Below are positions 3,002 to 49,395 of a stretch of 64,000 nucleotides of DNA, piece after piece. The position numbers were made by a program, and so were the translations under genes. Source of the DNA: a virus (lineage: Duplodnaviria > Heunggongvirae > Uroviricota > Caudoviricetes). The stretch lies in the IMG/VR virus record IMGVR_UViG_2675903278_000002; one strand, given 5' to 3'. The notes below the pieces were generated by a model, which made no database searches, was not told where the DNA came from, and saw only the letters and a list, made by a program, of their open reading frames with translations. Numbering within the stretch: the stretch's first letter is position 1; every line of letters begins with the position of its first letter.

Positions 3002-4075
3002 ATGGCAAAAGGAAAATCCGCACTGGCACTTGCTCTGAAAAAGAAAATCGGTAGCAACGACGAAATTCAGAAAGTAACTCATTGGATTGATACAGGCTTT
3101 CCACCGTTAAACAAAGCTATTTCTGGTCGTTACGATGGCGGCTTCCCATGTGGTCGTATCGTCGAAGTATTCGGTCCTCCAAGTGCAGGGAAAACGTTCC
3201 TTGCAACAGCAGCGATGATCTCCGCTCAAAAACAAGATGGTCTGGCGGTATTCCTCGATCATGAAAACAGTTTTGACGTTGGCCTGGCTGTAGCCAATGG
3301 CCTGAACGCAGATGAGGATGACGGTCAGTGGGTATACAAGCAGCCAGATACCTTCGAAGACTCTGTAGAGTTGATCGGCACAATACTTAAATTGGTTCGT
3401 GATGAAGAGCTTATCCCCGAATCAGCACCTATCTGTATCGTGGCTGACTCTCTTGCGTCTATGGTTCCGAACTCCAAAGCCGAGAAGTTCGAAAAGATGG
3501 CTGAAGGCACTGCCAAAGACAAAGATCAGCTAAACATGAACGACAATACGGCACTGGCTCGTGCGACGAGTGCGAACTTCCCTACTCTGGCTTTGTGGGC
3601 ACGCAAATACAACGCCTGCATCATCTTCTTGAATCAGGTTCGCACAAAAATCGGTGTAATGTTTGGCGACCCTACTACGTCGCCAGGTGGAGATTCACCG
3701 AAGTTCTACGCTTCTGTACGTATCCGTCTTGGTGCATCGGTGATGAAGGATGGTAAAGAGAAGATCGGCCAGGACGTAGGCGCAGAATGCATCAAAAACA
3801 AAGTTGCACCACCGTATGGCAAATGCACCTGGAAATTCTACTTCGATCCTACTCGTGGCCTCGACGTTATCGAATCGCTCGTCGAGTACATGCTGGAAGA
3901 AGGATACCTGCCAAAGAACGCCAGCGGGCGAGTTGAAATTGGTGACAAGAAATACACCAAATCGCAGATCGTTGAGATGTATCGGGAGAAGCCACTGGCT
4001 GAAATCATTGCGGCTTTGCAGGCAATCGACGACCGAAGAGCAAAAGACAACCCCACCGAGTCAGTAGAAGAGTAA
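3002..4075 (+). CDS. RecA/UvsX-like recombinase
   Basis: Walker A GPPSAGKTF, RecA-fold core, 357 aa, acidic C-terminus. Confidence 0.85.
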   Translation: MAKGKSALALALKKKIGSNDEIQKVTHWIDTGFPPLNKAISGRYDGGFPCGRIVEVFGPPSAGKTFLATAAMISAQKQDGLAVFLDHENSFDVGLAVANGLNADEDDGQWVYKQPDTFEDSVELIGTILKLVRDEELIPESAPICIVADSLASMVPNSKAEKFEKMAEGTAKDKDQLNMNDNTALARATSANFPTLALWARKYNACIIFLNQVRTKIGVMFGDPTTSPGGDSPKFYASVRIRLGASVMKDGKEKIGQDVGAECIKNKVAPPYGKCTWKFYFDPTRGLDVIESLVEYMLEEGYLPKNASGRVEIGDKKYTKSQIVEMYREKPLAEIIAALQAIDDRRAKDNPTESVEE

Positions 4076-6820: not shown

Positions 6821-7303
6821 AACCACTGCGGTGAGTAGTCTGCTCACCGCATTCGTATCCAGCTCATTATCCACTGTAGTCAGTAACAAAACCTTCCTAC
6901 ATATCTGCTAACCACTGTAGCGAGTAGACAGCCTTTCATTCGCATCAAACAACCACTATGGTGAGTATTGGAGTGAGATGTCCAGCGGGTATCCACTATG
7001 GTGAGTAAGCCTTTGCTGTTTTCAGTGGATATCCACTCGCCACAGTGGATACGCTCAAAGATGAGGGCGACAACAACCACTATAGACAGTAAATTTTCCA
7101 AGATACCCAGTGACCACTAACCTCGCAGCCCTTGTTTCATCAGTGTTAGTGATCACTAACATTTAATTCAGTATTTGCATTCTACTGCCTACAGTGGTTA
7201 TCAACAGATAACGATACTCACTATAGTGGATAGCGAATTACAGATATAAGTAAGGCTCACTACAGTGGATAGTGAGCCTTACTACTAACTACAGTGGTTG
7301 GGC
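6821..7303. repeat. iteron array downstream of repA (about 10 copies of a ~19-bp repeat, both orientations; incA-like)
   Basis: repeated (A/T)ACCACT(A/G)T(A/G)G(T/C)GAGTA units at ~6821, 6869, 6910, 6951, 6991, 7026-7053 (palindromic pair), 7075, and inverted copies at ~7217, 7257, 7287. Confidence 0.75.
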
Positions 7304-8358
7304 TATTTGCGAGTCTTTGCCTTGCGCAACTCTTCGAGAAGCGCCAGTTCTTCTTTACTCAACATGACCATTTTGCCTTCTTTTTCGTCAGGCACAACGT
7401 CGATAATGTCATCTTGATTCTCATCTGGGAGGCTATATTCCGTCTCATCATTATCGATTTTTGTTGATATTTGTGCCTGGCGTAACTTTGGCCGCCTATA
7501 GTGGATGACGAAGTAGACCGAGTTTCCGCGCTTAACTTCCGTGTAATCGAGATATCCTATCTCTCGCAGCTGTTCCATAGCCTTTCTTACCGTCGCATTC
7601 TGAGTAATAGTGCGACTTGTCAGATTAAGTCTGGCGCGTAAACGGGCTAGTGATATTGGTGCCGGATCAGGCGGCAAACTTTCAATAAAAGTATAAAGCG
7701 CCTGAGCGGATTCTTTTCTTGAGAGTTCGTTTATAGCCCGGAGTTGCAGAAGAACCTTTTTGTCGAACTGGTAGAGTTCGAAAATCTTGGGATCTGCTTT
7801 CAGTTCGACCGTATCGTGCTTGACACTATATTTTGCCGTTTGCACAAGATGCGTTACGTAAAACTCATCAGAGCCTTTGCTACGGAACGAGATGGTATTT
7901 GTGGCAATACGGCTTAGCGAACTGTCCAGGCGTTTGCGTAACTTCGCTGATGACCTGGCGGTCGGAATGCCACACAGCCTTACAAACTCAACGAACGGCA
8001 ACGTGACAGTATCGCCAACGACCTTGTGTTTGGCAAACGCGTGGATTATTCCCACCCACGTTTTAAAGTCGTTATCCATATCAAGCCGAAGGCCAGAGAT
8101 CCTTATGTCTTCGTACCCTTCGGCTTTTGCCAGAGACAGCTGTTTGAGTTCAGCAGAGGCATCCATAGAGACCATTTGCCCCTTTCTTCCTCTGGATGTC
8201 GATTTCAGCGTCGGAACGAAGAGGCCCAGACGCATCAAAGCAACAGGCTGAACAGTGTTATTAGTGTTAGGAACCAACGTAACAACTTCGCCTGTCTTTT
8301 TATCTGTTTCTGAAAATGCTTCAACGATCGCTATGTTTTTATTGCCGTTTTCGCTCAT
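7303..8358 (-). CDS. repA: plasmid replication initiator RepA (P1 RepA / RepFIB family)
   Basis: 351 aa; recalled similarity to P1 RepA ([30 protein letters not shown]); flanked by iteron arrays. Confidence 0.8.
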
Positions 8359-10000: not shown

Positions 10001-11086
10001 ATGACTTTGCCATACGGCGTCATTTCTGACTGCCACTACCACAAATGGGATGCGTTCTCCACGACGAACGCTGAGGGGCTTAACTCCAGACTTGAAATAC
10101 AGTTGGAAGCAACGAAAGAAGCAGCCATCGCCATGAAGAAGGCCGGTTGTAAGTACATGTTGGTTGCCGGTGATACATTTCACGTCCGAGGAACTGTGTC
10201 CCCTTCTGTTTTGCATTACGTAACTGAAACGTACAAGTGGATTATCAACGAGCTTGATCTGACAGTAGTAATGCTGGCCGGTAATCACGATCTTGAAACC
10301 AACGATTCAGTATATAGCGCCAACGCAGCAGCATCGCTGAGTTCTATCGGCGTGGTAATCGTATGTGGCAAGCGCCCACACTCAATAAAAATTGGTGATG
10401 TGACTGTCCACCTGATTAGCTGGCGTAACAATCATGCGGAGCTTATCAGCGATCTGAAAGCATTACGTAAGAGCGTAGAAGGTGATAATCATGACGTTGT
10501 TATCCATACATCCATTAACAAAGCCATTCCAACAATGCCTGACGTCGGTATCGATGCGCAGGAGTTAAAGGATATCGGCTTTCGTCTCGTGCTTAGTGGG
10601 CATTACCACAACCACAAAGAGGTCATTCCTGGAGTTATCAGTGTCGGTGCACTGACTCATCAAAATTGGGGAGATGTTGGATCTCTGGCTGGCTACATGA
10701 TCGTAAACCCGGACGGCAGTTTCAGTCACTACGAAACCAGTGCGCCTAAATTCATTAACCTGGAAGATGATGTTGCTGATGACCAAATTCGCGGCAACTA
10801 CGTGCGTTTCCGCGCCGTAATTGAGAACGATGAAGAAGGCATTAAGTACCAGAACATCCTCAAAACAATGGGTGCAAAAGGTGTCGTGTGCAACTTCATC
10901 CGTAAGTCATCAATGATGGAAGGTACAGCCAGCACAACTGAAACCAGCAAAATCGATAGCCTGGGAGAGTCGGTATCTGCTTATTGCAAGATTGTCCACG
11001 ATACTGACGGCGGATTTGATCTGAGCAAATTGGATATTTTGTGTCAGGAAATCCTCACCGAAGCGGAGAGTTCGGAGGCTGTGTGA
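10001..11086 (+). CDS. SbcD/Mre11-family nuclease (T4 gp47-like)
   Basis: calcineurin-like phosphoesterase motifs (DCHYH, GDTFH, GNHD, GHYHNH); conserved leader upstream. Confidence 0.85.
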   Translation: MTLPYGVISDCHYHKWDAFSTTNAEGLNSRLEIQLEATKEAAIAMKKAGCKYMLVAGDTFHVRGTVSPSVLHYVTETYKWIINELDLTVVMLAGNHDLETNDSVYSANAAASLSSIGVVIVCGKRPHSIKIGDVTVHLISWRNNHAELISDLKALRKSVEGDNHDVVIHTSINKAIPTMPDVGIDAQELKDIGFRLVLSGHYHNHKEVIPGVISVGALTHQNWGDVGSLAGYMIVNPDGSFSHYETSAPKFINLEDDVADDQIRGNYVRFRAVIENDEEGIKYQNILKTMGAKGVVCNFIRKSSMMEGTASTTETSKIDSLGESVSAYCKIVHDTDGGFDLSKLDILCQEILTEAESSEAV

Positions 11087-11315
11087 AGCAAAGTCGTTAT
11101 GGGAGCTTTCGAGACTTTGCCATCACGATGAAAAGACTTGAACGAGGCCAGACGGTGATGTTTCACAAGCCCTACCCGCCACAAGGAAATCCCGTAGCGT
11201 TTTATCTTGGAAGGTTAACAAGAAAAGGCGTATTGAGGCGCAGATCCTTCCCGGCGCATACGGAGTTCAGATTGAAAGAAGGCCAAAAGCTAACACGCGG
11301 TATCAGAGGTGTTAT

Positions 11316-13232
11316 ATGAAGTTTTTAAAGCTCCAGGTTGAGAATTTTATGGCTATCGCCAGCGCGGAGGTCGAGTTAGATCAGCGTGGTTTAGTGCTTA
11401 TTCAGGGTGTTAATAGTGATGATAGTTCCGCATCAAGTAATGGCTCTGGAAAGTCAACTCTAATGAATAGCCTGATGTGGTGTCTTTATGGCGAAACAGC
11501 TCATGGTGTGAAGGGTGACGATGTGTTGTCTACCGACCATGAAAAGAACTGTCGTGTTGCAGTAACCATCGAGGATGAAGGCAAGAGATACGCAATCATT
11601 CGTCACCGTAAACACAAAGAGTTCAAAAATCGTCTTATCGTTCGTGGTGAAGATGGCGATATGACGAAAGGCAAAGATGCGCTGACGCAGGAGTTCGTCG
11701 AGCGTCTGATCGGTGCATCTAAAGAGGTTTTCATGGCTTCCATCTATGCGAGCCAAGAAGCTATGCCAGATTTACCTGGAATGTCCGACAAAAACCTCAA
11801 AACCATCGTAGAAGAAGCCGCTGGCGTTGACAGACTGACACGCGCCTACGCTATTGCTCGTGAGCGAGCTAATGCAGCTGCCGCACGTATGGATGTGGTT
11901 AAAACCAAATTGGAGTCGACAATCTCGACCATTGAGGCAACACAGTCAGAAATTGAGTCAGCGAAAGCCTCCTCTGAATCATGGGAGCAAGAGCGTTCTA
12001 AACGTTATGACGATGCCCTGGCTGGGCTGGCCAGTGCCGAAGTTGAGTTAACGGAAGTTGAACTTGAGATCCGCACTCTTCCCGAACAGATACGTGATAC
12101 CGAGAAGGCAATCGAAAGTGAGCGCAAAAAGTTAGCCTCAAAAGAAGAACATGACGCCAAGTTGCTCAAAGTTCGTGGTGCGATAACTGATATTCGGGCA
12201 AGCATCAAAGCTACAGAAAATAGTCAGGCTGATGCAATGAACCGCGCGCGTAATTTTAAGACCAAAGCAGAAGAGGTTGGTACTAAAGTGGGATCACCAT
12301 GCCCTACTTGTGGCAAAGCCTACTGCGAAGAAGATCTATCAACGGTGAAGGAGAGTTTCATTGAACAAGCACGTCAGGAAATTGGTCAGGCGAAGACACT
12401 TGCAGAGGCAATGGCTAAACACAAAACGAATCTTGAGAAAGCGTTAAGCATTGAGTCTGCCCTTGTTAAAACGACACCTGATGTAACGGCTATCATTGCC
12501 CGGATTGAAGAGCTTACGAAACAACTCTCATCTTTGCGTCATCGTGAGAAGGAGGTTGTTGCTATTGAGTCTCTTGTGACTCGTGCTCGTACTGAGGTCG
12601 ATCGTATATCAAAAGAGATTAATCCGTTTATTGCTCTTATCGCCAGACACGAAGATAACTTGGTATCCAGTAAGTCTACCTTCAAGTCCTTAAAAGATGA
12701 GTCGAAGGCTATTCAGGAACAAACGTTGCTATTGGAAAAAGCTCGTCAGGTCTACTCTCCTGCCGGGGTGCGTTCTCATATTTTGACGTCTGTTACGCCT
12801 TTCCTGAATACACGCACTGCCGAGTATCTCAATACGTTGTCTGACGGGAATATTACTGCTGAGTGGTCGACGATGGATGTCACTAAAAAAGGTGAGTATC
12901 GCGACAAATTCAACATTAGTGTGCAGAAGAAAGGTTCAAGTAAGTCGTTCCAGACCCTCTCTGGTGGTGAGAAGCGGAAGGTTCGCATTGCGTGTTCTTT
13001 GGCATTGCAGGATCTGGTTAGTAACCGGGCGAGTAAAAACATCGATTTGTTTATCGGCGACGAAATTGACGATGCACTCGATACAGCCGGTCTTGAACGC
13101 CTCATGGGTATTCTGGAGTCCAAAGCTCGCGAGCGAGGTACTGTGCTGATTATCTCCCATAAAGAGATGAAGTCATGGTTCCGGGAAACTATTACGCTGG
13201 AAGTTAAAGAGGGGCGCAGCTATGTCGTTTAA
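11316..13232 (+). CDS. SbcC/Rad50-family ATPase (T4 gp46-like)
   Basis: Walker A GSGKST, long coiled coil with CPTCG zinc hook, ABC signature LSGGEKRK, Walker B LFIGDEID. Confidence 0.85.
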   Translation: MKFLKLQVENFMAIASAEVELDQRGLVLIQGVNSDDSSASSNGSGKSTLMNSLMWCLYGETAHGVKGDDVLSTDHEKNCRVAVTIEDEGKRYAIIRHRKHKEFKNRLIVRGEDGDMTKGKDALTQEFVERLIGASKEVFMASIYASQEAMPDLPGMSDKNLKTIVEEAAGVDRLTRAYAIARERANAAAARMDVVKTKLESTISTIEATQSEIESAKASSESWEQERSKRYDDALAGLASAEVELTEVELEIRTLPEQIRDTEKAIESERKKLASKEEHDAKLLKVRGAITDIRASIKATENSQADAMNRARNFKTKAEEVGTKVGSPCPTCGKAYCEEDLSTVKESFIEQARQEIGQAKTLAEAMAKHKTNLEKALSIESALVKTTPDVTAIIARIEELTKQLSSLRHREKEVVAIESLVTRARTEVDRISKEINPFIALIARHEDNLVSSKSTFKSLKDESKAIQEQTLLLEKARQVYSPAGVRSHILTSVTPFLNTRTAEYLNTLSDGNITAEWSTMDVTKKGEYRDKFNISVQKKGSSKSFQTLSGGEKRKVRIACSLALQDLVSNRASKNIDLFIGDEIDDALDTAGLERLMGILESKARERGTVLIISHKEMKSWFRETITLEVKEGRSYVV

Positions 13233-18259: not shown

Positions 18260-19129
18260 ATGAACTTTACCAAACTGACTGACCACCTGAAACTTGCCAC
18301 CGATCGACTCATTGGATTTAAGCCAGAACCATATGAGTTGCATGAAGGCCATGGTGTAGCCACTGAAAGTATTTACAAGATGGTCGATCAGTTTCATGAA
18401 CTCTTCCAGCATCCGAGACGCGTTATGCCGACACCAGAGCTGCTTCGTCTCCGTGCAAGCCTGATTCATGAAGAAGCTGTAGTGGAAGGTATTCCAGCCG
18501 CAATGAATGGGGATATTGAGCAACTGCTGGATGCAATGGCCGACTTTTTATACGTTGGTGTTGGTACGATGGTCGCCATCAAAGGTGGTATTTCTACCGG
18601 CATGACCTATTACACGCAGGAACAGAGCATTGATCGCTTTATGCAGACAATTTTTGTGCCCGGTAACACTGTTTTCGATGATATGGCAATGCCATTTCAG
18701 GAAGCTCGTGAGGCGTCATGTATGCTCGAAGAGCTGGCAGATAAACTTGAGAACAAGACTGTTAAGGATTCTGAGCTGATTCAGGAACTGCGCCGTGTCA
18801 TGAACAAAATCTATGTGGCGTGCATGATGACCTATCGACTGGCTGATTTCCTCGGTATCAATGTAGTCGAGCTGGTTGGCGAAATTCATCGGTCTAACAT
18901 GACAAAATTATGGCCTGCTGATGTTGAGGAACGTCGCCAGGCTGTGGCCAACTGCAAATACGACTCTTCAGATCTGGGATTCCGCCATGCTGATGGCACC
19001 GATAAGATGATCGGTTTTCGAATTTCCGATGGAAAGATTCTGAAGTCTCCAACCTATAGTGATGTCGATTTATCCTCCTTTGTTGAGCAAGCTAAAGCCT
19101 CAGCAATGTACGGAATGATCAAAAAATAA
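18260..19129 (+). CDS. putative MazG-like nucleoside triphosphate pyrophosphohydrolase
   Basis: helical segment with E..E...D..E spacing (RLRASLIHEEAVVEGIPAAMNGDIEQLLDAMADFLY); context of nucleotide-metabolism genes. Confidence 0.4.
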   Translation: MNFTKLTDHLKLATDRLIGFKPEPYELHEGHGVATESIYKMVDQFHELFQHPRRVMPTPELLRLRASLIHEEAVVEGIPAAMNGDIEQLLDAMADFLYVGVGTMVAIKGGISTGMTYYTQEQSIDRFMQTIFVPGNTVFDDMAMPFQEAREASCMLEELADKLENKTVKDSELIQELRRVMNKIYVACMMTYRLADFLGINVVELVGEIHRSNMTKLWPADVEERRQAVANCKYDSSDLGFRHADGTDKMIGFRISDGKILKSPTYSDVDLSSFVEQAKASAMYGMIKK

Positions 19130-29604: not shown

Positions 29605-31290
29605 ATGAATACAGCCCTTTCCATCATCGACGATGCCAACTCAAACACTGCTATCGACTATCGGCAGGAAATGAACGTCATCCACGAAATTGTGGCCGAG
29701 TGCGAGAAAGAGATCGCCTTCATGTATCAGGTACACGACTTCGTTTATGGCGACGAACGCCACAACATGATTAATCGCCTGCTGAGACTAAACCATCGAC
29801 CAGATGAAGATCGCTCGCGTTTAAATCGAGGTTGGTTGGATAAAGTCGATCTGGAATGGGTGAAACAGAATATTTGGGCCGAGTACTGGAGGAAGGTCAC
29901 GGACATGACTAACGTTTTGCTGATCATGCCAGCTTCCCGTCGAGATGAGTGGCGCGAGCAGTTTATAGAGGGCAAACAGGAAGTCATCAAAACTGACAGA
30001 ACCGGCTACCAGATGAAGGTTAAAGAGTTCGTTGGTGTACCGGAGTTCAAAGCAGAAACGGTCATACCCACGATGCTTAATTTGCTGAATGACAGGCACA
30101 AATATCTCTCTGAGCGCGTGTATGGCTTGTTTAAGGCGCTGAGTCCTGCGCACAAGACAAATAAGACAAACGGTTTCAGCGAACGTCTGATAATCGCTGA
30201 CTGCATTTCTGATTTCTGGCGGGACAGCGTTAGTGTGAACTATCGCAAAGAGGACTATATCGACGATCTGCGTGTCTTGCTTCATTTCTTCGCGCACAAA
30301 GAATTTATTACCATCAACCGCACTGCTGAGGTGCTATCAGCTGCGTATCGGGCAAACGACTGCCAGACCGGTGACTGGATGAACGTCGATGGAAATCTAA
30401 TGCGCGTGAAGATGTTCAAGAACGGCAACGTTCACTTTGAAATACATCCTGACGTGGCCTGGAAGTTGAATGAGGTGCTGGCTTACAGTATGCCTGCTGC
30501 AATCCCCGCGCCATGTCGCACCGCGCCAAAAACACGGGCACCAAAGCAGTTCGGGTTAATCCAGAAGACGATCTCCGTGCCGGTTCGCACTGCGCTTCGT
30601 GACGGGCGATTAAGCAAAGACAAAGGCGTATGGTACTTCTCTGATTCAGCTCTCCAGAAGTCGCAGGTGGAAGAGCTTGAGCGCACACTGAGCTTCATTG
30701 GCGGCGTGCAGGAGAAAAAGCACTGGCAGTTCCCGTATGAGATCGGCCATACGCTAAATACGATTGTGGCTACCGGATTAATACCGGATACAAAATCACA
30801 CCAGTTCTACCCTACCCCACGCTTGATTGCTGAGTACGTTGCCAGAGCCACTGAATTGAAGTCTGGTGAGAAGCTGCTGGAGCCTCAAGCCGGACGTGGG
30901 GATCTTCTGGCCTATATCAACGCCGATCTGGAAGATGTTACCTGCATAGAAATCGCACCTCTCTTCGCTGATATCCTGCGCGGAAAAGGGTATACGAACA
31001 CGATTTGCTGCGACTTCATAAAGTGGTCTGAGGACAACGTAGGTTATCAGTTCGACAAAATCGTTATGAACCCGCCGTACTCGCTTGGTCGTCATAGAGA
31101 GCACACGCTGGCTGCGCTGGGGCATCTGAAAGTCGGCGGGCGTCTTGTAGCAGTATTGCCGGGCACTGCGCCAATACTGGACTGGATGACGATGGATAAT
31201 TACGTTTATGCCAGAGGGAAGTCGTTTACCAACGAGTTTGAAGACACAGGGATCACAGTCAGCGTATACGTTTTCAAACGCGTTAAATGA
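29605..31290 (+). CDS. DNA methyltransferase with long N-terminal domain of unknown function
   Basis: C-terminal ~170 aa carry SAM motif I LLEPQAGRGDL and catalytic NPPYS; N-terminal ~390 aa without recognisable motifs. Confidence 0.6.
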   Translation: MNTALSIIDDANSNTAIDYRQEMNVIHEIVAECEKEIAFMYQVHDFVYGDERHNMINRLLRLNHRPDEDRSRLNRGWLDKVDLEWVKQNIWAEYWRKVTDMTNVLLIMPASRRDEWREQFIEGKQEVIKTDRTGYQMKVKEFVGVPEFKAETVIPTMLNLLNDRHKYLSERVYGLFKALSPAHKTNKTNGFSERLIIADCISDFWRDSVSVNYRKEDYIDDLRVLLHFFAHKEFITINRTAEVLSAAYRANDCQTGDWMNVDGNLMRVKMFKNGNVHFEIHPDVAWKLNEVLAYSMPAAIPAPCRTAPKTRAPKQFGLIQKTISVPVRTALRDGRLSKDKGVWYFSDSALQKSQVEELERTLSFIGGVQEKKHWQFPYEIGHTLNTIVATGLIPDTKSHQFYPTPRLIAEYVARATELKSGEKLLEPQAGRGDLLAYINADLEDVTCIEIAPLFADILRGKGYTNTICCDFIKWSEDNVGYQFDKIVMNPPYSLGRHREHTLAALGHLKVGGRLVAVLPGTAPILDWMTMDNYVYARGKSFTNEFEDTGITVSVYVFKRVK

Positions 31291-35552: not shown

Positions 35553-35942
35553 ATGGGCTTCCCTTCTCCTGCGGCGGATTATGCAGAGAGCCGTATTTCT
35601 CTTGATCAGCAACTAATCAGACATCCTTCAGCGACCTACTTCATGCGGGCAGCTGATAGTCATCATCGTGAGGGAATATTACAGGGTGCATTGCTGGTGG
35701 TCGATTCCTCACTTACCCCGGTTGATGGTTCTCTGCTTGTATGCGCTCTGGATGGGGAATATCGCGTAAAAAGATACCGGAAGTACCCACGTCAGCATCT
35801 GGAGGATTTAAGAACCGGTAAGAAGGAAGCATTGCCAAAGGATGACGATGGATGCACGGGCAGCAATGCCGTGTTTGGTGTGATCACTCACATTATCAAC
35901 GACGCAAGAAGTGGCGAGTTTGATGATTGTCCCGTGATGTAG
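35553..35942 (+). CDS. UmuD-prime-like protein (S24 peptidase fold, begins at the position of processed UmuD)
   Basis: N-terminus MGFPSPAADYAE corresponds to UmuD residues just after the autocleavage site; QLIRHPSATYF, ADS and VK motifs retained. Confidence 0.8.
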   Translation: MGFPSPAADYAESRISLDQQLIRHPSATYFMRAADSHHREGILQGALLVVDSSLTPVDGSLLVCALDGEYRVKRYRKYPRQHLEDLRTGKKEALPKDDDGCTGSNAVFGVITHIINDARSGEFDDCPVM

Positions 35943-35953
35943 GAGAACTGATT

Positions 35954-35979
35954 AGGCGGTGCATTGCACCGCCTTTTTA
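35954..35979. terminator. bidirectional terminator between UmuD-prime-like gene and apbC
   Basis: AGGCGGTGC-ATT-GCACCGCCT hairpin flanked by A/T runs. Confidence 0.65.
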
Positions 35980-37080
35980 TCACACTGCGCGGAATGCGAT
36001 TTCGCCAGGTATTACTTCACCTTGCCAATACATTTGGGCAGCAACGCGATCTGCGAGGTCACGATAAATAGCCGTAAATTCGCTATCTGGACGACTAATA
36101 ACGGTTGGTGTTCCGTTATCCAGATCTTCACGAAGAGAGATATGAAGTGGCATTTGGCCTAACAACTGCGTGTTGTATTTCTCGGCCAGTTTCTGTGCGC
36201 CACCGGTGCCAAAAATTGGCTCGTGATGACCGCAGTTACTGCAAATATGCACACTCATGTTTTCGACGATACCCAGTACCGGCACTTCGACTTTTTCGAA
36301 CATCACAATGCCTTTCTTCGCATCGATCAGCGCGATGTCTTGCGGCGTAGTTACCACAACCGCACCAGTTACAGGAATGTTCTGCGCCAGCGTCAACTGA
36401 ATATCACCAGTGCCCGGCGGCATATCGAGAACGAGATAGTCCAGATCAGGCCATAGAGTTTCCTGCAACATCTGCATCAGCGCCTTGCTGGCCATCGGTC
36501 CACGCCACACCATTGCATTGTCGTCGGTGACCAGATAACCAATAGAGTTGGTTGCCAGGCCATGAGACATGATAGGTGCCATGTGAGTACCGTCCGGTGA
36601 GGTTGGACGTTGGTTTTCCGCGCCCAGCATGGTTGGAATTGATGGACCATAGATATCGGCATCCAAAATACCAACTTTCGCACCTTCAGCAGCCAACGCC
36701 AGTGCCAGATTTACCGCCGTGGAGGATTTACCTACGCCGCCCTTGCCTGAGCTGACGGCGATAATGTTCTTAACGCCATTAATGCCTGGTTGGTTTTTGA
36801 CGCGCTTAAGCGTGGCAATGTTGTACGACAGCTTCCAGTCAATAGCCTTTGCGCCAGTGATACGGAGCAGATCACCACTACATTGCTCTTTCAGGTCTTC
36901 AAAAGGCTTATTCCACACGAAAGGCATGATTAGTTCGACATGCAGTGTGTCATCCATCAACGCAACATGGTGTAACGCTTTAAGCGTAGTCAGGTTGTGT
37001 TTCAGGGTTGGGTGCTGAAAATTAGCCAGCGTACCGGCTACCATTGCTCTCAGGGCATCCGGCGATTTGGACTCGCTCAT
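35980..37080 (-). CDS. apbC: Fe-S cluster carrier ATPase ApbC/Mrp
   Basis: 366 aa; near-identical to enterobacterial Mrp as recalled (SGKGGVGKS P-loop, CSNCGH motif); divergent from metG as in E. coli. Confidence 0.9.
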   Translation of the reverse strand: MSESKSPDALRAMVAGTLANFQHPTLKHNLTTLKALHHVALMDDTLHVELIMPFVWNKPFEDLKEQCSGDLLRITGAKAIDWKLSYNIATLKRVKNQPGINGVKNIIAVSSGKGGVGKSSTAVNLALALAAEGAKVGILDADIYGPSIPTMLGAENQRPTSPDGTHMAPIMSHGLATNSIGYLVTDDNAMVWRGPMASKALMQMLQETLWPDLDYLVLDMPPGTGDIQLTLAQNIPVTGAVVVTTPQDIALIDAKKGIVMFEKVEVPVLGIVENMSVHICSNCGHHEPIFGTGGAQKLAEKYNTQLLGQMPLHISLREDLDNGTPTVISRPDSEFTAIYRDLADRVAAQMYWQGEVIPGEIAFRAV

Positions 37081-37236
37081 CCCGTCTCCTTTATTTTAAT
37101 TTGCGCAATTGTCGCCTTGTAGTGTACTCCAGCTACGACATTTAATCATTTATGAGAAATGCTGTTATCACATGGCAGACATAAGGCCATTTTGTTACTA
37201 TCAAGCCCCTTTTCACTACAAAGAAGTAATGCCTAC

Positions 37237-39271
37237 TATGACCCAAGTCGCGAAGAAAATTCTGGTGACGTGCGCGCTGCCGTACGCTAACGGCTCAATC
37301 CACCTCGGCCATATGCTGGAGCACATCCAGGCTGATGTCTGGGTTCGTTACCAGCGAATGCGCGGCCACGAGGTTAATTTCATCTGTGCCGACGATGCCC
37401 ACGGTACGCCGATCATGCTGAAAGCACAGCAGCTTGGTATCACACCGGAGCAGATGATTGGCGAAATGAGTCAGGAACACCAGACTGATTTCGCAGGCTT
37501 TAACATCAGCTATGACAACTATCACTCGACGCACAGCGAAGAGAACCGTCAGTTGTCTGAGCTTATCTATACTCGCCTGAAAGAGAACGGTTTTATTAAA
37601 AACCGCACTATCTCTCAGTTGTACGACCCGGAAAAAGGCATGTTCCTGCCGGATCGTTTTGTAAAAGGCACCTGCCCGAAATGTAAAGCGCCAGATCAAT
37701 ACGGCGATAACTGTGAAGTCTGCGGCGCAACATATAGCCCGACTGAATTGATCGAGCCGAAATCGGTGGTTTCTGGCGCTACCCCGGTAATGCGTGATTC
37801 CGAACACTTCTTCTTTGATCTGCCTTCTTTCAGCGAAATGTTGCAGGCATGGACCCGCAGCGGCGCGTTGCAGGAGCAGGTGGCGAACAAAATGCAGGAA
37901 TGGTTTGAATCCGGCCTGCAACAGTGGGATATCTCCCGAGATGCGCCTTACTTCGGTTTTGAAATTCCGAACGCGCCGGGCAAATATTTCTACGTCTGGC
38001 TGGACGCGCCGATTGGCTACATGGGTTCCTTCAAGAATCTGTGCGACAAGCGCGGCGATACCACCAGCTTCGATGAATACTGGAAGAAAGACTCCACCGC
38101 CGAGCTGTACCACTTCATCGGTAAAGATATTGTTTACTTCCACAGCCTGTTCTGGCCTGCCATGCTGGAAGGCAGCAACTTCCGCAAGCCGACCAACCTG
38201 TTTGTTCACGGCTATGTGACGGTGAACGGCGCGAAGATGTCCAAGTCTCGCGGCACCTTTATTAAAGCCAGCACCTGGCTGAATCATTTTGACGCCGACA
38301 GCCTGCGTTACTACTACACTGCGAAACTCTCTTCGCGCATTGATGATATCGATCTCAACCTGGAGGATTTCGTTCAGCGCGTGAATGCCGATATCGTGAA
38401 CAAAGTGGTTAACCTGGCCTCCCGTAATGCAGGCTTTATCAACAAGCGTTTTGACGGCGTGCTGGCAAGCGAACTGGCTGACCCGCAACTGTACAAAACC
38501 TTTACTGATGCCGCTGAAGTGATTGGCGAAGCATGGGAAAGCCGCGAATTTGGTAAAGCTATCCGTGAAATCATGGCATTGGCTGACCTGGCTAACCGCT
38601 ATGTCGATGAACAGGCTCCGTGGGTGGTGGCGAAGCAGGAAGGACGCGATGCCGATCTGCAGGCGATTTGCTCTATGGGCATTAACCTGTTCCGCGTGCT
38701 GATGACGTACCTGAAGCCGGTACTGCCGAAACTGACTGAACGTGCAGAAGCATTCCTGAATACAGAACTGACCTGGGATGGTATCCAGCAACCGCTGCTG
38801 GGCCATAAAGTAAATCCGTTCAAGGCACTGTATAACCGCATCGATATGAAGCAGGTTGAAGCACTGGTGGAAGCATCCAAAGAAGAAGTGAAAGCCACAG
38901 CCGCACCGGTAACTGGCCCACTGGCTGACGACCCGATTCAGGAAACTATCACCTTTGACGACTTCGCCAAAGTTGACCTGCGCGTGGCGCTGATTGAAAA
39001 CGCAGAGTTTGTAGAAGGTTCTGACAAACTGCTTCGCCTGACGCTGGATCTCGGTGGTGAAAAGCGTAATGTCTTCTCAGGCATCCGTTCCGCTTATCCA
39101 GATCCACAGGCACTGATTGGTCGTCACACCATTATGGTGGCTAACCTGGCACCACGTAAAATGCGCTTCGGTATCTCTGAAGGCATGGTGATGGCTGCTG
39201 GCCCCGGCGGGAAAGATATCTTCCTGTTAAGCCCGGATGCTGGTGCTAAACCTGGCCACCAGGTTAAGTAA
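37237..39271 (+). CDS. metG: methionyl-tRNA synthetase
   Basis: 677 aa from [10 protein letters not shown]; HIGH-type [12 protein letters not shown] and KMSKS motifs; near-identical to E. coli MetG as recalled; large antisense ORF 37295..38806 rejected. Confidence 0.95.
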
Positions 39272-39291
39272 TTAAACAACCTCTCTTCGCA

Positions 39292-39319
39292 ATGCCCGGC
39301 AACACGCCGGGCATTTTCA
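39292..39319 (+). terminator. Rho-independent terminator after metG
   Basis: ATGCCCGGC-AACACG-CCGGGCAT then TTTCAT. Confidence 0.65.
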
Positions 39320-39432
39320 TATAGACACAATCCCTTCTGATTTACACAGTACCTAAAACAATTTGTTTTCTGCCTTTTGTTGATGGAGATAATAAACCAC
39401 ATAAGAAAACAACTTGTTTTGGAGTGGTTGAA

Positions 39433-40795: not shown

Positions 40796-41560
40796 TTGTT
40801 TATACAAATAAGAAAACAACTAAATAACAGATCAACGAAACGTCAACGCTTTCACCCGATTTGGTCTAAAAAATTGACGTTTTCACACATCACTTCTTAT
40901 ACCCGTAACTCTACGCAGCAGACATCGCCACAGCGTCCAATTTTCACCACAGACGACCCAACACACTACCAACAAAAACACACGCTCAAAATCGCTCCCG
41001 TTGCGTTACACAACCATATAAACAACTTATTTTCAGGCATAACAAAACAACTAAATAACACACATGCCATTTCCAAAAACAACCAACCTCTTTATGGCAG
41101 GCTACCGAAAAGACCCACCTCTTCTCCCCAGGCTACCGGACAACCAACCTAACTTTCACAGGCAATCCGAAAACATTCATACGCGCGATACCCACGACAC
41201 GCCATTACCCAAACAGCGAAGAAACACCAGAATCACTGAACCCCCAACGAAGCCTGTAACCGCAAGGCTTCTCTCAATCCCAAAAGACACGAAACAGAAC
41301 AATCACGGGAAACGCCATTACCCAACACACGAATAACTACAAAAGCCCTTCACGCACTCCAGACAAACAACTCAAACACAATAACGAAAGGAATCGCCCA
41401 CCTGCCATTACTCCATACACGGAGAAGAACAATCACCAAAACGACGAGAACACCCCATAGAAGAACCACCGCAAAACGAACGAAACCACATACACCGACA
41501 GAGAGAACAACACACCCAATTCACCAACAGAATTAGTCGCCGTATAGAACGTTCTGGAAG
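40796..41560. other. ~750-bp strongly strand-asymmetric C/A-rich, G-poor non-coding tract
   Basis: top strand dominated by A and C with few G; only low-complexity ORFs; internal ~30-bp repeats CAGGC(T/A)ACCG... at ~41097, 41130, 41159. Confidence 0.6.
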
Positions 41561-46577: not shown

Positions 46578-46598
46578 GATAAAGCTCCTTAAAAAAAA

Positions 46599-46802
46599 TT
46601 AAATAGAATTTTGAAGTTTTCCGATTAATGCGCTTAAACGTAAGTATTCACGTTTGCGCTTGCAATCTCGCTTGCTGTTGAGCAAATCAGAAAACGTAAA
46701 ATTTAATTGGTCGCGTTGCGCGATCAAATCATCGATTAATTCCAGTTTATAAGCGCGATACTTTGCGCGATATTCCGCGCGGATCTTGTCATAGCTGACC
46801 AT
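46599..46802 (-). CDS. hypothetical small basic protein (low-GC island)
   Basis: 67 aa from ATG at 46802 with RBS AAGGAG (ORF track start 46847). Confidence 0.4.
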   Translation of the reverse strand: MVSYDKIRAEYRAKYRAYKLELIDDLIAQRDQLNFTFSDLLNSKRDCKRKREYLRLSALIGKLQNSI

Positions 46803-46850
46803 TTTTAAAGCTCCTTTAAAGCGCCCACTATGGGCGCTTGATTCCATTAA

Positions 46851-47501
46851 TTACGCTTTGAAAGCATCAGCTAAATAATTGTAGAAATCATTTTTAATGA
46901 AGCGATATTGCTGAGTACCAGCTTTCGCGCTCCCAGCTCCTTTGACTTTTTCAACAAGTCCAAGACGTTCGCAAAGATTGATCAACTGGTTGGCTTGAGT
47001 ATAGCCAGCGTCCAATTTAATTTCGCACGCTTTTTTCGCTTCATTCATTAAATCGAAAACAGCGCCATTGGTGAACGTGTCGATCTCGTCGTTAATCATA
47101 TCGATTAATGCGAATACACGAGATCCGGACATATCAGCGACGGAATAAACACACTTTCCAGCTTTAATGGATTTAACCAGATAAACCAGTTTTTCCAGAG
47201 AATAACTATTAGTCATTGCATCACGGAAAAATACTTCTGGCGCTTGTTTGCTTGCTTTGATCGCATAGTAGAAAACAGAGCACAATTTTTCGTCTTCTAC
47301 AGCGTTTACAACGTTGTTGATGAAGTAAGCAAGTTTAGTGGTTGCAGCTTGCATATTTGCTTTGTCTGCTTTGGTGTGCGTGCCATTTTTATAATGTTCG
47401 TTATATGTTTGAGTTGCCAGATCTGCTTTTTCGCGCAGTTCATCGGATACAATGGAAGCAGCTTCAATGATGGATTTTTTAGAAATGATAATGTTAGCCA
47501 T
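46851..47501 (-). CDS. hypothetical protein (low-GC island)
   Basis: 216 aa; RBS AAGGAAAAATTATCATG; possible helix-turn-helix-like C-terminal segment. Confidence 0.5.
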   Translation of the reverse strand: MANIIISKKSIIEAASIVSDELREKADLATQTYNEHYKNGTHTKADKANMQAATTKLAYFINNVVNAVEDEKLCSVFYYAIKASKQAPEVFFRDAMTNSYSLEKLVYLVKSIKAGKCVYSVADMSGSRVFALIDMINDEIDTFTNGAVFDLMNEAKKACEIKLDAGYTQANQLINLCERLGLVEKVKGAGSAKAGTQQYRFIKNDFYNYLADAFKA

Positions 47502-47784
47502 GATAATTTTTCCTTATGTAAATTTAAAATTTATTGTCGTTAGCGTCTTCGCTTTCGACGAGTTCAATTATCGATATGCGAAAAAAGATTGCAAGTGTTT
47601 TTTTTAAATTTTTTGCAGGGATGAAAGTCCTAGAAATAAAAGCGAGATCGTCGAAGGTGTTCCCTAAATAAATAATTGATTGCGGCTTTAGACCTTATAT
47701 ATATTTAGGTTATTTGATTTGTAGATATAAAGAAGTGATGTGAAAAATAATAACCGGACTTAGCCGGTTATTAACCTTATAGAT

Positions 47785-48093
47785 TTATTGAACAGACTCT
47801 ACAGCCTTACGATTGGTGTCAAATAGCGCATCAACGAACTGTGCCGATGACTCGCTAGATTCGCAATCCAACATTGCCCGTTCTTCATTTGCCACTTTCT
47901 TACACAGTTCCACATTCTCACCTATCGCTTTTCCTGCTTTTACGGCTGCCGAAAATTGATACATGCAAACTGATACATTCTGAGACGTTGAGCACACGTC
48001 ATTCATCAGCGACTGAATGACAGGCTTATAGTCCATTGCATTTGCCGCAACTGAGCAAAGTAAAAATAATGGTGGTAACAATATCGATTTCAT
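47785..48093 (-). CDS. hypothetical exported Cys-containing protein
   Basis: signal peptide MKSILLPPLFLLCSVAANA; 102 aa. Confidence 0.5.
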   Translation of the reverse strand: MKSILLPPLFLLCSVAANAMDYKPVIQSLMNDVCSTSQNVSVCMYQFSAAVKAGKAIGENVELCKKVANEERAMLDCESSESSAQFVDALFDTNRKAVESVQ

Positions 48094-48096
48094 AAC

Positions 48097-48621
48097 TCAA
48101 AAAGGCAAAATTCGTTCAACCCAATCGAACAAAACAACTATTTTTCTACCGTTCTCGACACGTAGTGTAACCTGACAAGCATCTGCGCCTGCTGACACCC
48201 CCTCAATTTCACGGCCATCCGCCATGTACACCCTTATAGATTTGTTTGCTTTGTAGGCTTGGTTGCAAATTGCAAAAAAATCGCGGCGTGATGGCCGATT
48301 ATCGACATAATCAGGGTGAACTGTTAGTCGACCTTTGAAATCGTGAGCGATACTGTCAACCACACCTGATTCAATTGTACTAATGCGTTCAAGTGGGAGC
48401 CTTATACGATTTTCTTTGTCAAAAGGGGCTGGGCAAAGGTCAACTTTGTTACGAGATGGCATGAGGCCATAAACGTACATGCAAAACGCCTGGCCATCTT
48501 CGAGAGTGACCCTTACAGGAATTTGTTCTCTGCGCCAGAACATCAGTAGTTTTTCAACGTTAGTGTAATCTCGCGGCCAGAGTTCAGCTTGGATACCGTA
48601 GGTAATATCTTTGGTTGTCAT
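48097..48621 (-). CDS. hypothetical protein
   Basis: 174 aa from internal Met chosen to avoid overlap with upstream lipoprotein gene; start uncertain. Confidence 0.4.
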   Translation of the reverse strand: MTTKDITYGIQAELWPRDYTNVEKLLMFWRREQIPVRVTLEDGQAFCMYVYGLMPSRNKVDLCPAPFDKENRIRLPLERISTIESGVVDSIAHDFKGRLTVHPDYVDNRPSRRDFFAICNQAYKANKSIRVYMADGREIEGVSAGADACQVTLRVENGRKIVVLFDWVERILPF

Positions 48622-48625
48622 ATCA

Positions 48626-49048
48626 TCACAGAGTTGTTGGCAGAATGTCGATGTCACCAGAATTGCTGGTAAACACCCTGAACGCTTTTGTGTCTCCATT
48701 CTTCAGAGTCGTTTCTCGCTCTTGACGAGCGGGGTTTAGAGCACATAAACCTGCACCTTCAAGAGATGCACCCACAATTAATTCTCCGGCATTTAAATGG
48801 AAAGTCGCTTTTTCGCCTGTAGCCAGTTTTGCGACAGTTTCGCCGTTGATGAAAATGGAAGCATCACATCCAGCTCCTACAAAACCTGTGTCTCTCATTA
48901 CCACCAACGTAGCTGGCGCTGCGCTTTGATACTTGAACACTTTGGCCTGCGGTGCTGGTTTGGCGTCATGGATTGATATTGGGTGTGATTGGCACGCGGC
49001 AAGCATCAACACTGGTAACGTTAGTAGAGGGAGAAGCGAGTATTTCAT
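48626..49048 (-). CDS. hypothetical lipoprotein
   Basis: signal peptide with lipobox (LMLAAC) from Met at 49048; 140 aa. Confidence 0.5.
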   Translation of the reverse strand: MKYSLLPLLTLPVLMLAACQSHPISIHDAKPAPQAKVFKYQSAAPATLVVMRDTGFVGAGCDASIFINGETVAKLATGEKATFHLNAGELIVGASLEGAGLCALNPARQERETTLKNGDTKAFRVFTSNSGDIDILPTTL

Positions 49049-49116
49049 GATAGTTTTAGAACAGAAAGTGAACAGTATGGGAGACTTCATCTTTGTCTCC
49101 CTAATTGATAGCGTGA

Positions 49117-49395
49117 TTATTTTAATCTGCTTAATAGCGTTTCGAGATCTTCCTTTGTCATATTAGAGTTCTCATAGATACGCATGATTTTCTCACGAGT
49201 CTTAGCGGAAGCCCCGACAGAAGATATAACCTTGTCAAAGTCGGCCATTGTCAATTGTTCCAGAATGGTATTTATGACTTCAGCCTTAGACATTTTGATA
49301 TTTTTTTCTTTTAGTTTCACTTGAAACTTTCCAAGTTTGTCATTGGCCTTATCAGACAATGCTACCTGACAGTAAGTTGTTTTCTTTTCACTCAT
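49117..49395 (-). CDS. hypothetical protein
   Basis: 92-aa ORF directly downstream of the helicase gene on the minus strand. Confidence 0.45.
   Translation of the reverse strand: MSEKKTTYCQVALSDKANDKLGKFQVKLKEKNIKMSKAEVINTILEQLTMADFDKVISSVGASAKTREKIMRIYENSNMTKEDLETLLSRLK

Follow-up and report, generated by a model that had tools for sequence, protein, structure and literature searches.

An apbC-metG cassette of host origin fixed in the Escherichia clade of SSU5-like phage-plasmids, with a metG that seems to have been renewed from host chromosomes

The DNA analyzed here, referred to as the window, is a stretch of 64,000 nucleotides (nt) from IMG/VR virus record IMGVR_UViG_2675903278_000002 (Caudoviricetes). 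Judged from its genes, the window is a pSLy3-group phage-plasmid of the SSU5 supergroup, an element of presumably ~110 kb, and it contains a divergent pair of enterobacterial genes, apbC (mrp) and metG, which encode an Fe-S cluster carrier ATPase and methionine--tRNA ligase (methionyl-tRNA synthetase, MetRS), respectively. An earlier note, made from the sequence alone, had described this block as a captured host segment of ~3.3 kb and not as an integration junction, and this description holds: homology to chromosomes is limited to positions ~35984 to ~39272 of the window, i.e., both coding regions and the spacer between them. We regard it as likely that the block is an old, selectively maintained auxiliary cassette that provides a second functional MetRS during carriage of the element and in which metG is repeatedly overwritten from the host copy. 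The cassette is a fixed character of the Escherichia clade of SSU5-like phage-plasmids (pSLy3/pLF82/pWPMR2). Taken together, the comparisons described below indicate that apbC and the spacer stem from a capture older than the radiation of the sampled Escherichia species and that metG has been renewed since then.

Both genes are under strong purifying selection. The earlier note had proposed a comparison of synonymous sites between this metG and host metG; in a comparison with Escherichia coli K-12, metG shows 94.1% nucleotide identity (synonymous divergence, dS, of 0.29; nonsynonymous divergence, dN, of 0.006; dN/dS = 0.021), and apbC shows 81.7% (dS = 1.59, dN = 0.035, dN/dS = 0.022). The dS of plasmid apbC exceeds 1 to every chromosome compared. 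Its nucleotide identity is 78 to 83% to every genus, whereas Escherichia species share 89 to 96% among themselves, and in a relative-rate check, the branch of plasmid apbC exceeds those of Escherichia by only ~2.4 points. Plasmid metG, on the other hand, falls within the Escherichia cluster (92.9 to 94.3%, as against 86 to 88% to other genera). The GC content at third codon positions (GC3) is 0.52 in apbC, compared with 0.60 to 0.62 in Escherichia, while that of metG is unchanged at 0.61. The apbC-proximal part of the spacer resembles Citrobacter and not E. coli, with its best match in Citrobacter spp. (78% over 135 nt). The identity and GC3 of apbC and the Citrobacter-like spacer, set against the Escherichia-like metG, are the reason why apbC and the spacer are read as old and metG as renewed. 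All 5,426 complete E. coli genomes contain a chromosomal match to the block, at only 88.6 to 90.3% identity, and no ApbC with more than 95% protein identity was found among 100,044 species-representative genomes (one per species). Within the plasmids, the seven apbC alleles form a tight group (dS = 0.06 to 0.22, dN = 0 to 0.004); ApbC WP_000004356.1 is identical in five of the six sister plasmids compared, and six of the seven copies, including that of the window, share the same protein. E. coli, Citrobacter, and Salmonella were considered as donors in a recent capture and rejected, the best ApbC matches being 95% at the amino acid level and 83% at the nucleotide level. A recently acquired host fragment in general was rejected as well: the best chromosome reaches 90.3% over the block and 83% over apbC, the block is universal in the clade, and dN/dS is 0.02.

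The seven plasmid metG alleles are as divergent from one another as Escherichia species are (dS up to 0.37), their protein accessions differ, and a site-compatibility permutation test with a simplified home-made PHI statistic gives p ≤ 0.001 for plasmid metG and 0.05 for apbC. Tracts shared with chromosomes are observed in sister plasmids. The metG of a Shigella sonnei plasmid is 99.5% identical to that of K-12 over positions 37638 to 38037, including an exact run of 344 nt; the metG of pAVS0747 shares an exact run of 533 nt with the chromosome of E. coli 82.0312, within a tract of 1.2 kb that is 99 to 100% identical in each 200-bp interval; and the metG of pTUM18530 shares an exact run of 245 nt with E. 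coli E69. The mosaic alleles and these chromosome-identical tracts indicate that metG has repeatedly been re-patched by homologous recombination. The allele of the window carries no fresh patch, and its longest exact run with any tested chromosome is 153 nt. Chromosomal metG is itself unusually diverse in E. coli (K-12 is 95.9% identical to 82.0312 and 94.8% identical to E69). Across much of the gene, the chromosomal metG of 82.0312 matches various plasmid alleles at 98.5 to 100% identity, and its tracts hint at exchange in one or both directions. Transfer of the 3' 834 bp of the window metG from plasmid to chromosome was considered and rejected, as the best E. coli chromosome matched at 94.8% and none reached 95%. 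Host addiction to plasmid metG, considered for E. coli HN68, in which the chromosomal metG is annotated as frameshifted, was rejected too, because the assembly is riddled with frameshifted genes and the metG frameshift is most likely a sequencing error.

In PLSDB, about 197 plasmids contain the block, at 94.7 to 100% identity and at a constant position. Their hosts are E. coli, Shigella, E. albertii, and E. marmotae without exception, and nearly all of these plasmids are non-mobilizable and ~105 to 115 kb in size. Among the complete E. coli genomes, the block occupies 224 plasmid places. A terminase-portal marker with at least 95% identity is found in 185 PLSDB and 214 E. coli records (216 at a threshold of at least 90%), counts that are about equal to those of the block-bearing plasmids; this marker is at least 99% identical in 156 PLSDB plasmids and 80 to 84% identical to pHCM2, pMT1, and Klebsiella relatives. 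The block is absent from hundreds of relatives from Klebsiella, Enterobacter, Salmonella (pHCM2), Yersinia (pMT1), and Citrobacter, in which the backbone identity is 80 to 84%, and from SSU5 itself. A composite query of the left and right flanks found no plasmid in which the two are adjacent, i.e., no empty site. A backbone marker was found at 245 plasmid places and at no chromosomal place in the 5,426 genomes, of which 237 (about 4%) carry the element. Since the position is constant, the presence is clade-wide, no empty site was found, and no backbone was found in chromosomes, the cassette is neither a sporadic insertion nor a chimera, and it does not mark an integration junction. Stable chromosomal integration, as a candidate of its own, was rejected because the backbone marker has zero chromosomal places.

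A third essential housekeeping gene, der (encoding the ribosome-biogenesis GTPase EngA), is present on three phage-plasmids (NZ_CP072690.1, NZ_CP146383.1, and NZ_CP148383.1). In NZ_CP072690.1, the plasmid of E. marmotae YF8, der directly adjoins apbC at the place where the window has a humD-like gene. Plasmid der is ~91.5% identical to the chromosomal der of E. coli. The position of der next to apbC suggests that this slot repeatedly takes up host translation-related genes.

The features of the block and its borders, in positions of the window, are as follows.

35553 to 35942, + strand: humD-like gene (UmuD/S24 peptidase), backbone directly left of the block (NF051876 HumD equivalog, 220 bits)
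35954 to 35974, + strand: GC-rich hairpin with a T-run, abutting the apbC stop codon (-18.6 kcal/mol, z = -4.6)
35980 to 37080, - strand: apbC (mrp), Fe-S cluster carrier ATPase, 366 amino acids (NF008669 equivalog and motifs)
37081 to 37237, no strand assigned: divergent intergenic (promoter) region between apbC and metG (alignments to chromosomal loci)
37238 to 39271, + strand: metG, methionine--tRNA ligase, 677 amino acids (NF001100 equivalog and motifs)
39291 to 39315, + strand: hairpin 3' of metG, likely a terminator, with a weak T tract (-19.1 kcal/mol, z = -5.8)
39355 to 39420, no strand assigned: two copies of the AAAACAAYTTGTTT palindrome, where backbone DNA resumes (motif count in the window)

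Both genes are intact; apbC was read from its open reading frame (ORF) translation, and the real start of metG at 37238 lies inside an ORF that spans 37109 to 39271. MetG matches NCBIfam NF001100 with 1019.8 bits (cut-off 587) over residues 4 to 677 of 677 and TIGR00398 with 698.7 bits, and its C-terminal tRNA-binding/dimerisation domain corresponds to TIGR00399 (163 bits). The HLGH and KMSKS motifs and a CxxC...CxxC zinc knuckle are present in the translation. Plasmid MetG is a full-length methionine--tRNA ligase of the enterobacterial dimeric class I type and is predicted to be catalytically active. ApbC matches NCBIfam NF008669 with 759.3 bits (cut-off 348) over residues 2 to 366 and contains a deviant Walker A motif (GKGGVGKS) and a CSNC motif, which is of the cluster-binding CxxC form. 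The near-full identity to enterobacterial proteins claimed earlier is accurate for MetG, in which 669 of 677 residues (98.8%) are identical to those of the K-12 protein, and too generous for ApbC, which has an identity of 93.8% and an N-terminus shorter by three residues. No private amino acid change is found in MetG; because all eight differences from K-12 occur in other chromosomal MetRS, the protein of the window looks normal and unimpaired. An ORF of 503 codons antisense to metG (37295 to 38806) is a by-product of the metG codon usage.

Hairpins are located at both ends of the block, as the earlier note had described. The left one seems mainly to terminate the upstream humD-like gene, because its T-run sits on the + strand; this gene is annotated as an S24 peptidase in plasmid pSCU-306-2 and is a homologue of humD of P1 and D6. 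The hairpin downstream of metG is not homologous to the chromosomal metG terminator in the alignment. When the window is globally aligned with the K-12 locus, neither side shows similarity beyond the stop codon, and the chromosomal terminators and neighbours (yehE and a DUF4132 gene) are absent from the flanks of the block. The sequences beyond both stops, including both hairpins, have no match in 80 enterobacterial species loci. In the same 80 loci, the metG-proximal ~50 nt of the intergenic region are kept in all enterobacterial chromosomes, and this conserved stretch includes TGTTACTAT, a candidate extended -10 element at 37193 to 37201. Because the AAAACAAYTTGTTT palindrome flanks the block and the backbone matches plasmid DNA on both sides, both flanks are element DNA, in agreement with what had been claimed. 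The best match is pSCU-306-2, a circular E. coli plasmid of 112 kb, which aligns with all of the 13.4 kb centred on the block at 99.5% identity. A nucleotide search of the block with its flanks, which had also been proposed, matches SSU5-like pSLy3 phage-plasmids over both, and chromosomes match the block only. A prophage/chromosome integration junction at metG was rejected, as chromosomal homology ends at both stops and both flanks are plasmid backbone.

For the reading of the block as an old cassette kept for its second MetRS, gene integrity, distribution, fixation, selection, age discordance, and recombination tracts are taken from the present analysis. The ancestor of the clade would have captured the syntenic apbC-metG pair from an enterobacterium that branches close to the base of the present Escherichia radiation or lies outside it, and nearly everything beyond the two stop codons would have been lost. 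The cassette would then have settled in the accessory region of the pSLy3/pLF82/pWPMR2 clade, where purifying selection would since have kept both proteins. In carriage, metG would be expressed from its retained native promoter and would provide the host with a second functional MetRS, which may back up or perturb the essential chromosomal enzyme, and the antibiotic-survival benefit, for which a published link exists, would favour vertical maintenance of the element. We infer promoter use, this fitness rationale, and the role of ApbC. It is proposed that metG can still recombine with the host copy because its slow evolution keeps the similarity high enough, and the RecA-like and Mre11/Rad50-like proteins of the element might assist in this. 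Continual re-patching from chromosomes would make the plasmid metG alleles mosaic and variable, and apbC, having drifted too far to recombine, would persist as an old, nearly invariant, AT-ameliorated lineage.

Expression and complementation, as well as the antimicrobial-survival phenotype, are drawn from the literature, in part at second hand. In a CRISPR interference (CRISPRi) study, metG proved essential in every E. coli strain tested other than APEC O1, in which chromosomal metG is dispensable because of a plasmid metG copy that complements in uninduced cultures (Rousset et al., bioRxiv 10.1101/2020.05.25.114553). As this plasmid replaces chromosomal metG, the rescue of a metG-deficient host by such an element seems in effect already to have been done. 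The earlier note had offered three roles for the block, namely, MetRS supply during infection or carriage, a homology patch for integration, and a recent recombination scar; MetRS supply during carriage is the best supported of these, by the CRISPRi result and the plasmid copy of APEC O1. In S. sonnei, phage-plasmid metG is summarised as creating a surviving sub-population under antimicrobials (Tam et al. 2024, medRxiv 10.1101/2024.10.27.24316207, as summarised in PMC12452169). A 2025 survey names the element in question pWPMR2 and assigns it to an SSU5 clade that occurs commonly in S. sonnei and also in E. coli CC131, CC23, and CC73 (bioRxiv 10.1101/2025.09.12.675607).

Several points weigh against this reading. 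The apbC dS values above 1 are near saturation. The recombination comparison covers seven plasmid and about nine chromosomal alleles and uses the home-made PHI-type test. The metG promoter, assigned from conservation, is putative, and the retention of apbC could partly be hitch-hiking with the shared promoter region. The APEC O1 plasmid is placed in the same family as the window by shared gene content, and the pWPMR2 phenotype is taken from summaries by others. The phenotype is reportedly, in the Tam et al. preprint, strongest for a "mutated" metG, and if so, it would apply only weakly to the allele of the window.

A more elaborate account, which we consider possible but doubtful as a whole, assigns separate fates to the two genes. 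In it, apbC would be a pre-radiation capture domesticated for an element-specific role, and metG would be a live recombination interface; transient cointegrates at metG, possibly formed via the RecA-like and Mre11/Rad50-like machinery, would shuttle alleles between Escherichia and Shigella lineages. Such exchange would be the source of the "highly variable" metG copies for which a link to antibiotic survival has been described, and the neighbouring slot would occasionally gain further essential translation genes, such as der in the three plasmids.

Three other explanations were weighed against that of a cassette maintained for carriage. Aminoacyl-tRNA synthetases of giant phages have a proposed role in the support of lytic translation. 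A corresponding role of the cassette, in which MetRS would charge initiator and elongator Met-tRNA and ApbC would serve Fe-S maturation as host expression declines, would suit its location within a T4-like block of replication and nucleotide-metabolism genes and the fact that relatives form real phage particles and have been deposited as phages (Cyrano, PhiR41_1, and CMS-2020a). We nevertheless consider this role unlikely: metG keeps a chromosomal-type native promoter region, apbC is oriented against the flow of the surrounding + strand phage genes, the window contains no tRNA gene, and other clades of the SSU5 supergroup with the same lifestyle lack the cassette. The complementation by plasmid metG in uninduced cultures also argues against it (bioRxiv 10.1101/2020.05.25.114553).

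The block might instead be selected for its identity to chromosomal metG, as a homology patch for Hfr-like cointegration and for chromosome mobilisation or transduction. The metG tracts shared by sister plasmids and chromosomes show that homologous exchange occurs, single-crossover cointegrates resolved at a second site would yield such patches, and the element encodes its own RecA-like and Mre11/Rad50-like proteins; transient cointegrates are plausible as an intermediate for the observed tracts. As the purpose of the block, however, this appears still less probable than a lytic role. No stable cointegrate is seen in the 5,426 genomes (zero chromosomal against 245 plasmid places of the backbone), and mere homology would need neither a dN/dS of 0.02, which indicates that selection acts on more than homology, nor intact catalytic motifs. 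In addition, apbC, at 82% identity, is useless as homology and yet is even more strictly conserved, and the window allele has no exact run above 153 nt in common with any tested chromosome. The homology patch suggested earlier is partly supported, by the shared tracts, and selection is found at the protein level. A recent accident or artefact, i.e., a fresh illegitimate-recombination scar, an assembly chimera, or a chromosome with a one-sided prophage, has nothing in its favour except that housekeeping genes are a priori unexpected on a phage-plasmid, and it is refuted. About 200 circular plasmids from four species, assembled independently of one another, have the block at one and the same position; it is bordered by element DNA to the left and to the right, and chromosomes reach at most 90.3% identity over it; the fixation in the clade, the missing empty site, the apbC dS above 1, and the dN/dS of 0.02 likewise contradict the scar.

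Beyond the block, the window is collinear with pSCU-306-2 from 15963 to 58431. The segment from 46594 to 49142 is unaligned or only ~91% identical to this otherwise 99%-identical plasmid and represents a variable accessory segment. Packaging genes (terminase and portal) and plasmid genes (for ParB-like proteins and a Rep3 initiator, the latter at 7303 to 8358 on the - strand) are all encoded. The T4-like genes mentioned in the earlier note were recovered: a gp32-like single-stranded DNA-binding protein (SSB), a RecA/UvsX-like recombinase, an Mre11/Rad50-like pair, and a 5'-3' exonuclease, together with a nucleotide-metabolism set of NrdA/NrdB, a PF01503 pyrophosphohydrolase, thymidylate synthase, and dihydrofolate reductase. 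The recombination genes lie between 700 and 13232 (RecA/UvsX-like at 3002 to 4075 and the Mre11/Rad50-like pair at 10001 to 13232, with the gp32-like SSB) and may be relevant to the exchange of metG with the chromosome. Between nrdB and the thymidylate synthase gene, an ORF of 289 amino acids (18260 to 19129, + strand) with a PF01503 (PRA-PH/MazG-like) domain is probably the counterpart of a non-homologous dUTPase, encoded on a plasmid, through which dut becomes dispensable in E. coli TA447 and APEC O1. Close relatives of the element have been deposited both as plasmids (pLF82 and pECOH89) and as phages (Cyrano, PhiR41_1, and CMS-2020a), and by analogy with them, the element would form infectious particles and be stably maintained as a plasmid.

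The dispersed motif of the earlier note is the palindrome AAAACAAYTTGTTT, for which 17 matches with at most one mismatch (about 13 sites) were counted in the window, compared with 0.15 expected. The sites (5264, 16995, 27217, 27946, 32488, 39355, 39406, 42591, 43075, 43978, 44728, 45213, and 54356) are on both sides of the block and none is within it. The matches are mostly on the + strand, and at least those at 27946, 39355, and 39406 are intergenic and just 5' of + strand ORFs; AAAACAAYTTGTTT may serve the phage-plasmid as an operator or an early-promoter element. The palindromes reported at 31289 and 50994 do share a motif, GTAAGTNNTTAC, a second short palindromic sequence with three sites (26324, 31294, and 51007) against 0.1 expected. 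A stretch of ~800 nt at ~40800 to 41560 (up to ~42260) is strongly A/C-rich and G/T-poor, with an AT skew of +0.31, and is without a credible ORF. It lies within a gap of ~1.6 kb for which no related plasmid has an annotation, and a G-rich repeat-like segment comes after it; no Rfam or tRNA match was found at ~40800 to 41560, which may represent a non-coding RNA or a region related to replication or single-stranded DNA. Neither tRNA nor Rfam matches were obtained anywhere in the window, and a connection of the block with tRNAs of the element or with known RNA elements was rejected.

A mobile element found in about 4% of complete E. coli genomes thus carries a second metG that is predicted to be a working copy. 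Plasmid metG changes which host genes are essential and, according to summaries of the published work, is reported to promote antibiotic survival in epidemic Shigella. The system offers a natural case for the study of how mobile elements keep captured core genes and refresh them via host recombination. In genome scans, the apbC-metG block should be treated as a normal and diagnostic feature of pSLy3/pWPMR2-type phage-plasmids and not as an anomaly or a misassembly.

The high novelty that the earlier note had assumed does not apply, as metG on phage-plasmids is already known, annotated in hundreds of records, and studied. What is modestly new is that apbC and metG differ in age, that ApbC is strictly conserved, and that rare variants carry der. 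The pSLy3 group belongs to the SSU5 supergroup of phage-plasmids (Pfeifer et al. 2021, PMC7969092); metG is mentioned neither in this paper on phage-plasmid groups nor in the pECOH89 paper. The closest relatives, pLF82/Cyrano, pECOH89, and pSCU-306-2, are non-mobilizable circular elements of ~105 to 115 kb with 99% identity in the terminase-portal marker and 96.8 to 100% in the block, and their differences from the window are allelic only and concentrated in metG. The SSU5-like plasmids of S. sonnei share the backbone clade, the block, and its locus (97.6 to 98.5% over the block, with identical ApbC), whereas the S. sonnei plasmid examined has the private MetG substitutions G134C, A410T, and D565E and a K-12-like metG conversion patch, none of which is present in the window allele. 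On the "unreported plasmid" of APEC O1 and TA447, nrdAB homologues and a gene for a PF01503 dUTPase, next to others for nucleotide biosynthesis, accompany metG (bioRxiv 10.1101/2020.05.25.114553), and the window has the same gene content (metG, nrdA/nrdB, and the PF01503 ORF at 18260 to 19129).

The chromosomal enterobacterial apbC-metG locus shows the same divergent pair with the same motifs, the same metG-proximal promoter and 5' untranslated region, and nearly the same protein lengths. It differs from the plasmid block in being flanked by yehE (left) and the DUF4132 gene (right) and in having the chromosomal terminators, all of which the block lacks, and in the plasmid, apbC has diverged by 17 to 18% with a lowered GC3, the spacer is Citrobacter-like, and ApbC is three residues shorter. 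Virus-borne translation enzymes are also known from jumbo or giant phages and giant viruses, which carry aminoacyl-tRNA synthetase genes. Compared with the synthetases of jumbo phages, metG of the window is a near-native host orthologue with its own promoter region on a temperate phage-plasmid of 110 kb; phage-plasmid metG recombines with the host copy, and its action during carriage is documented in the literature.

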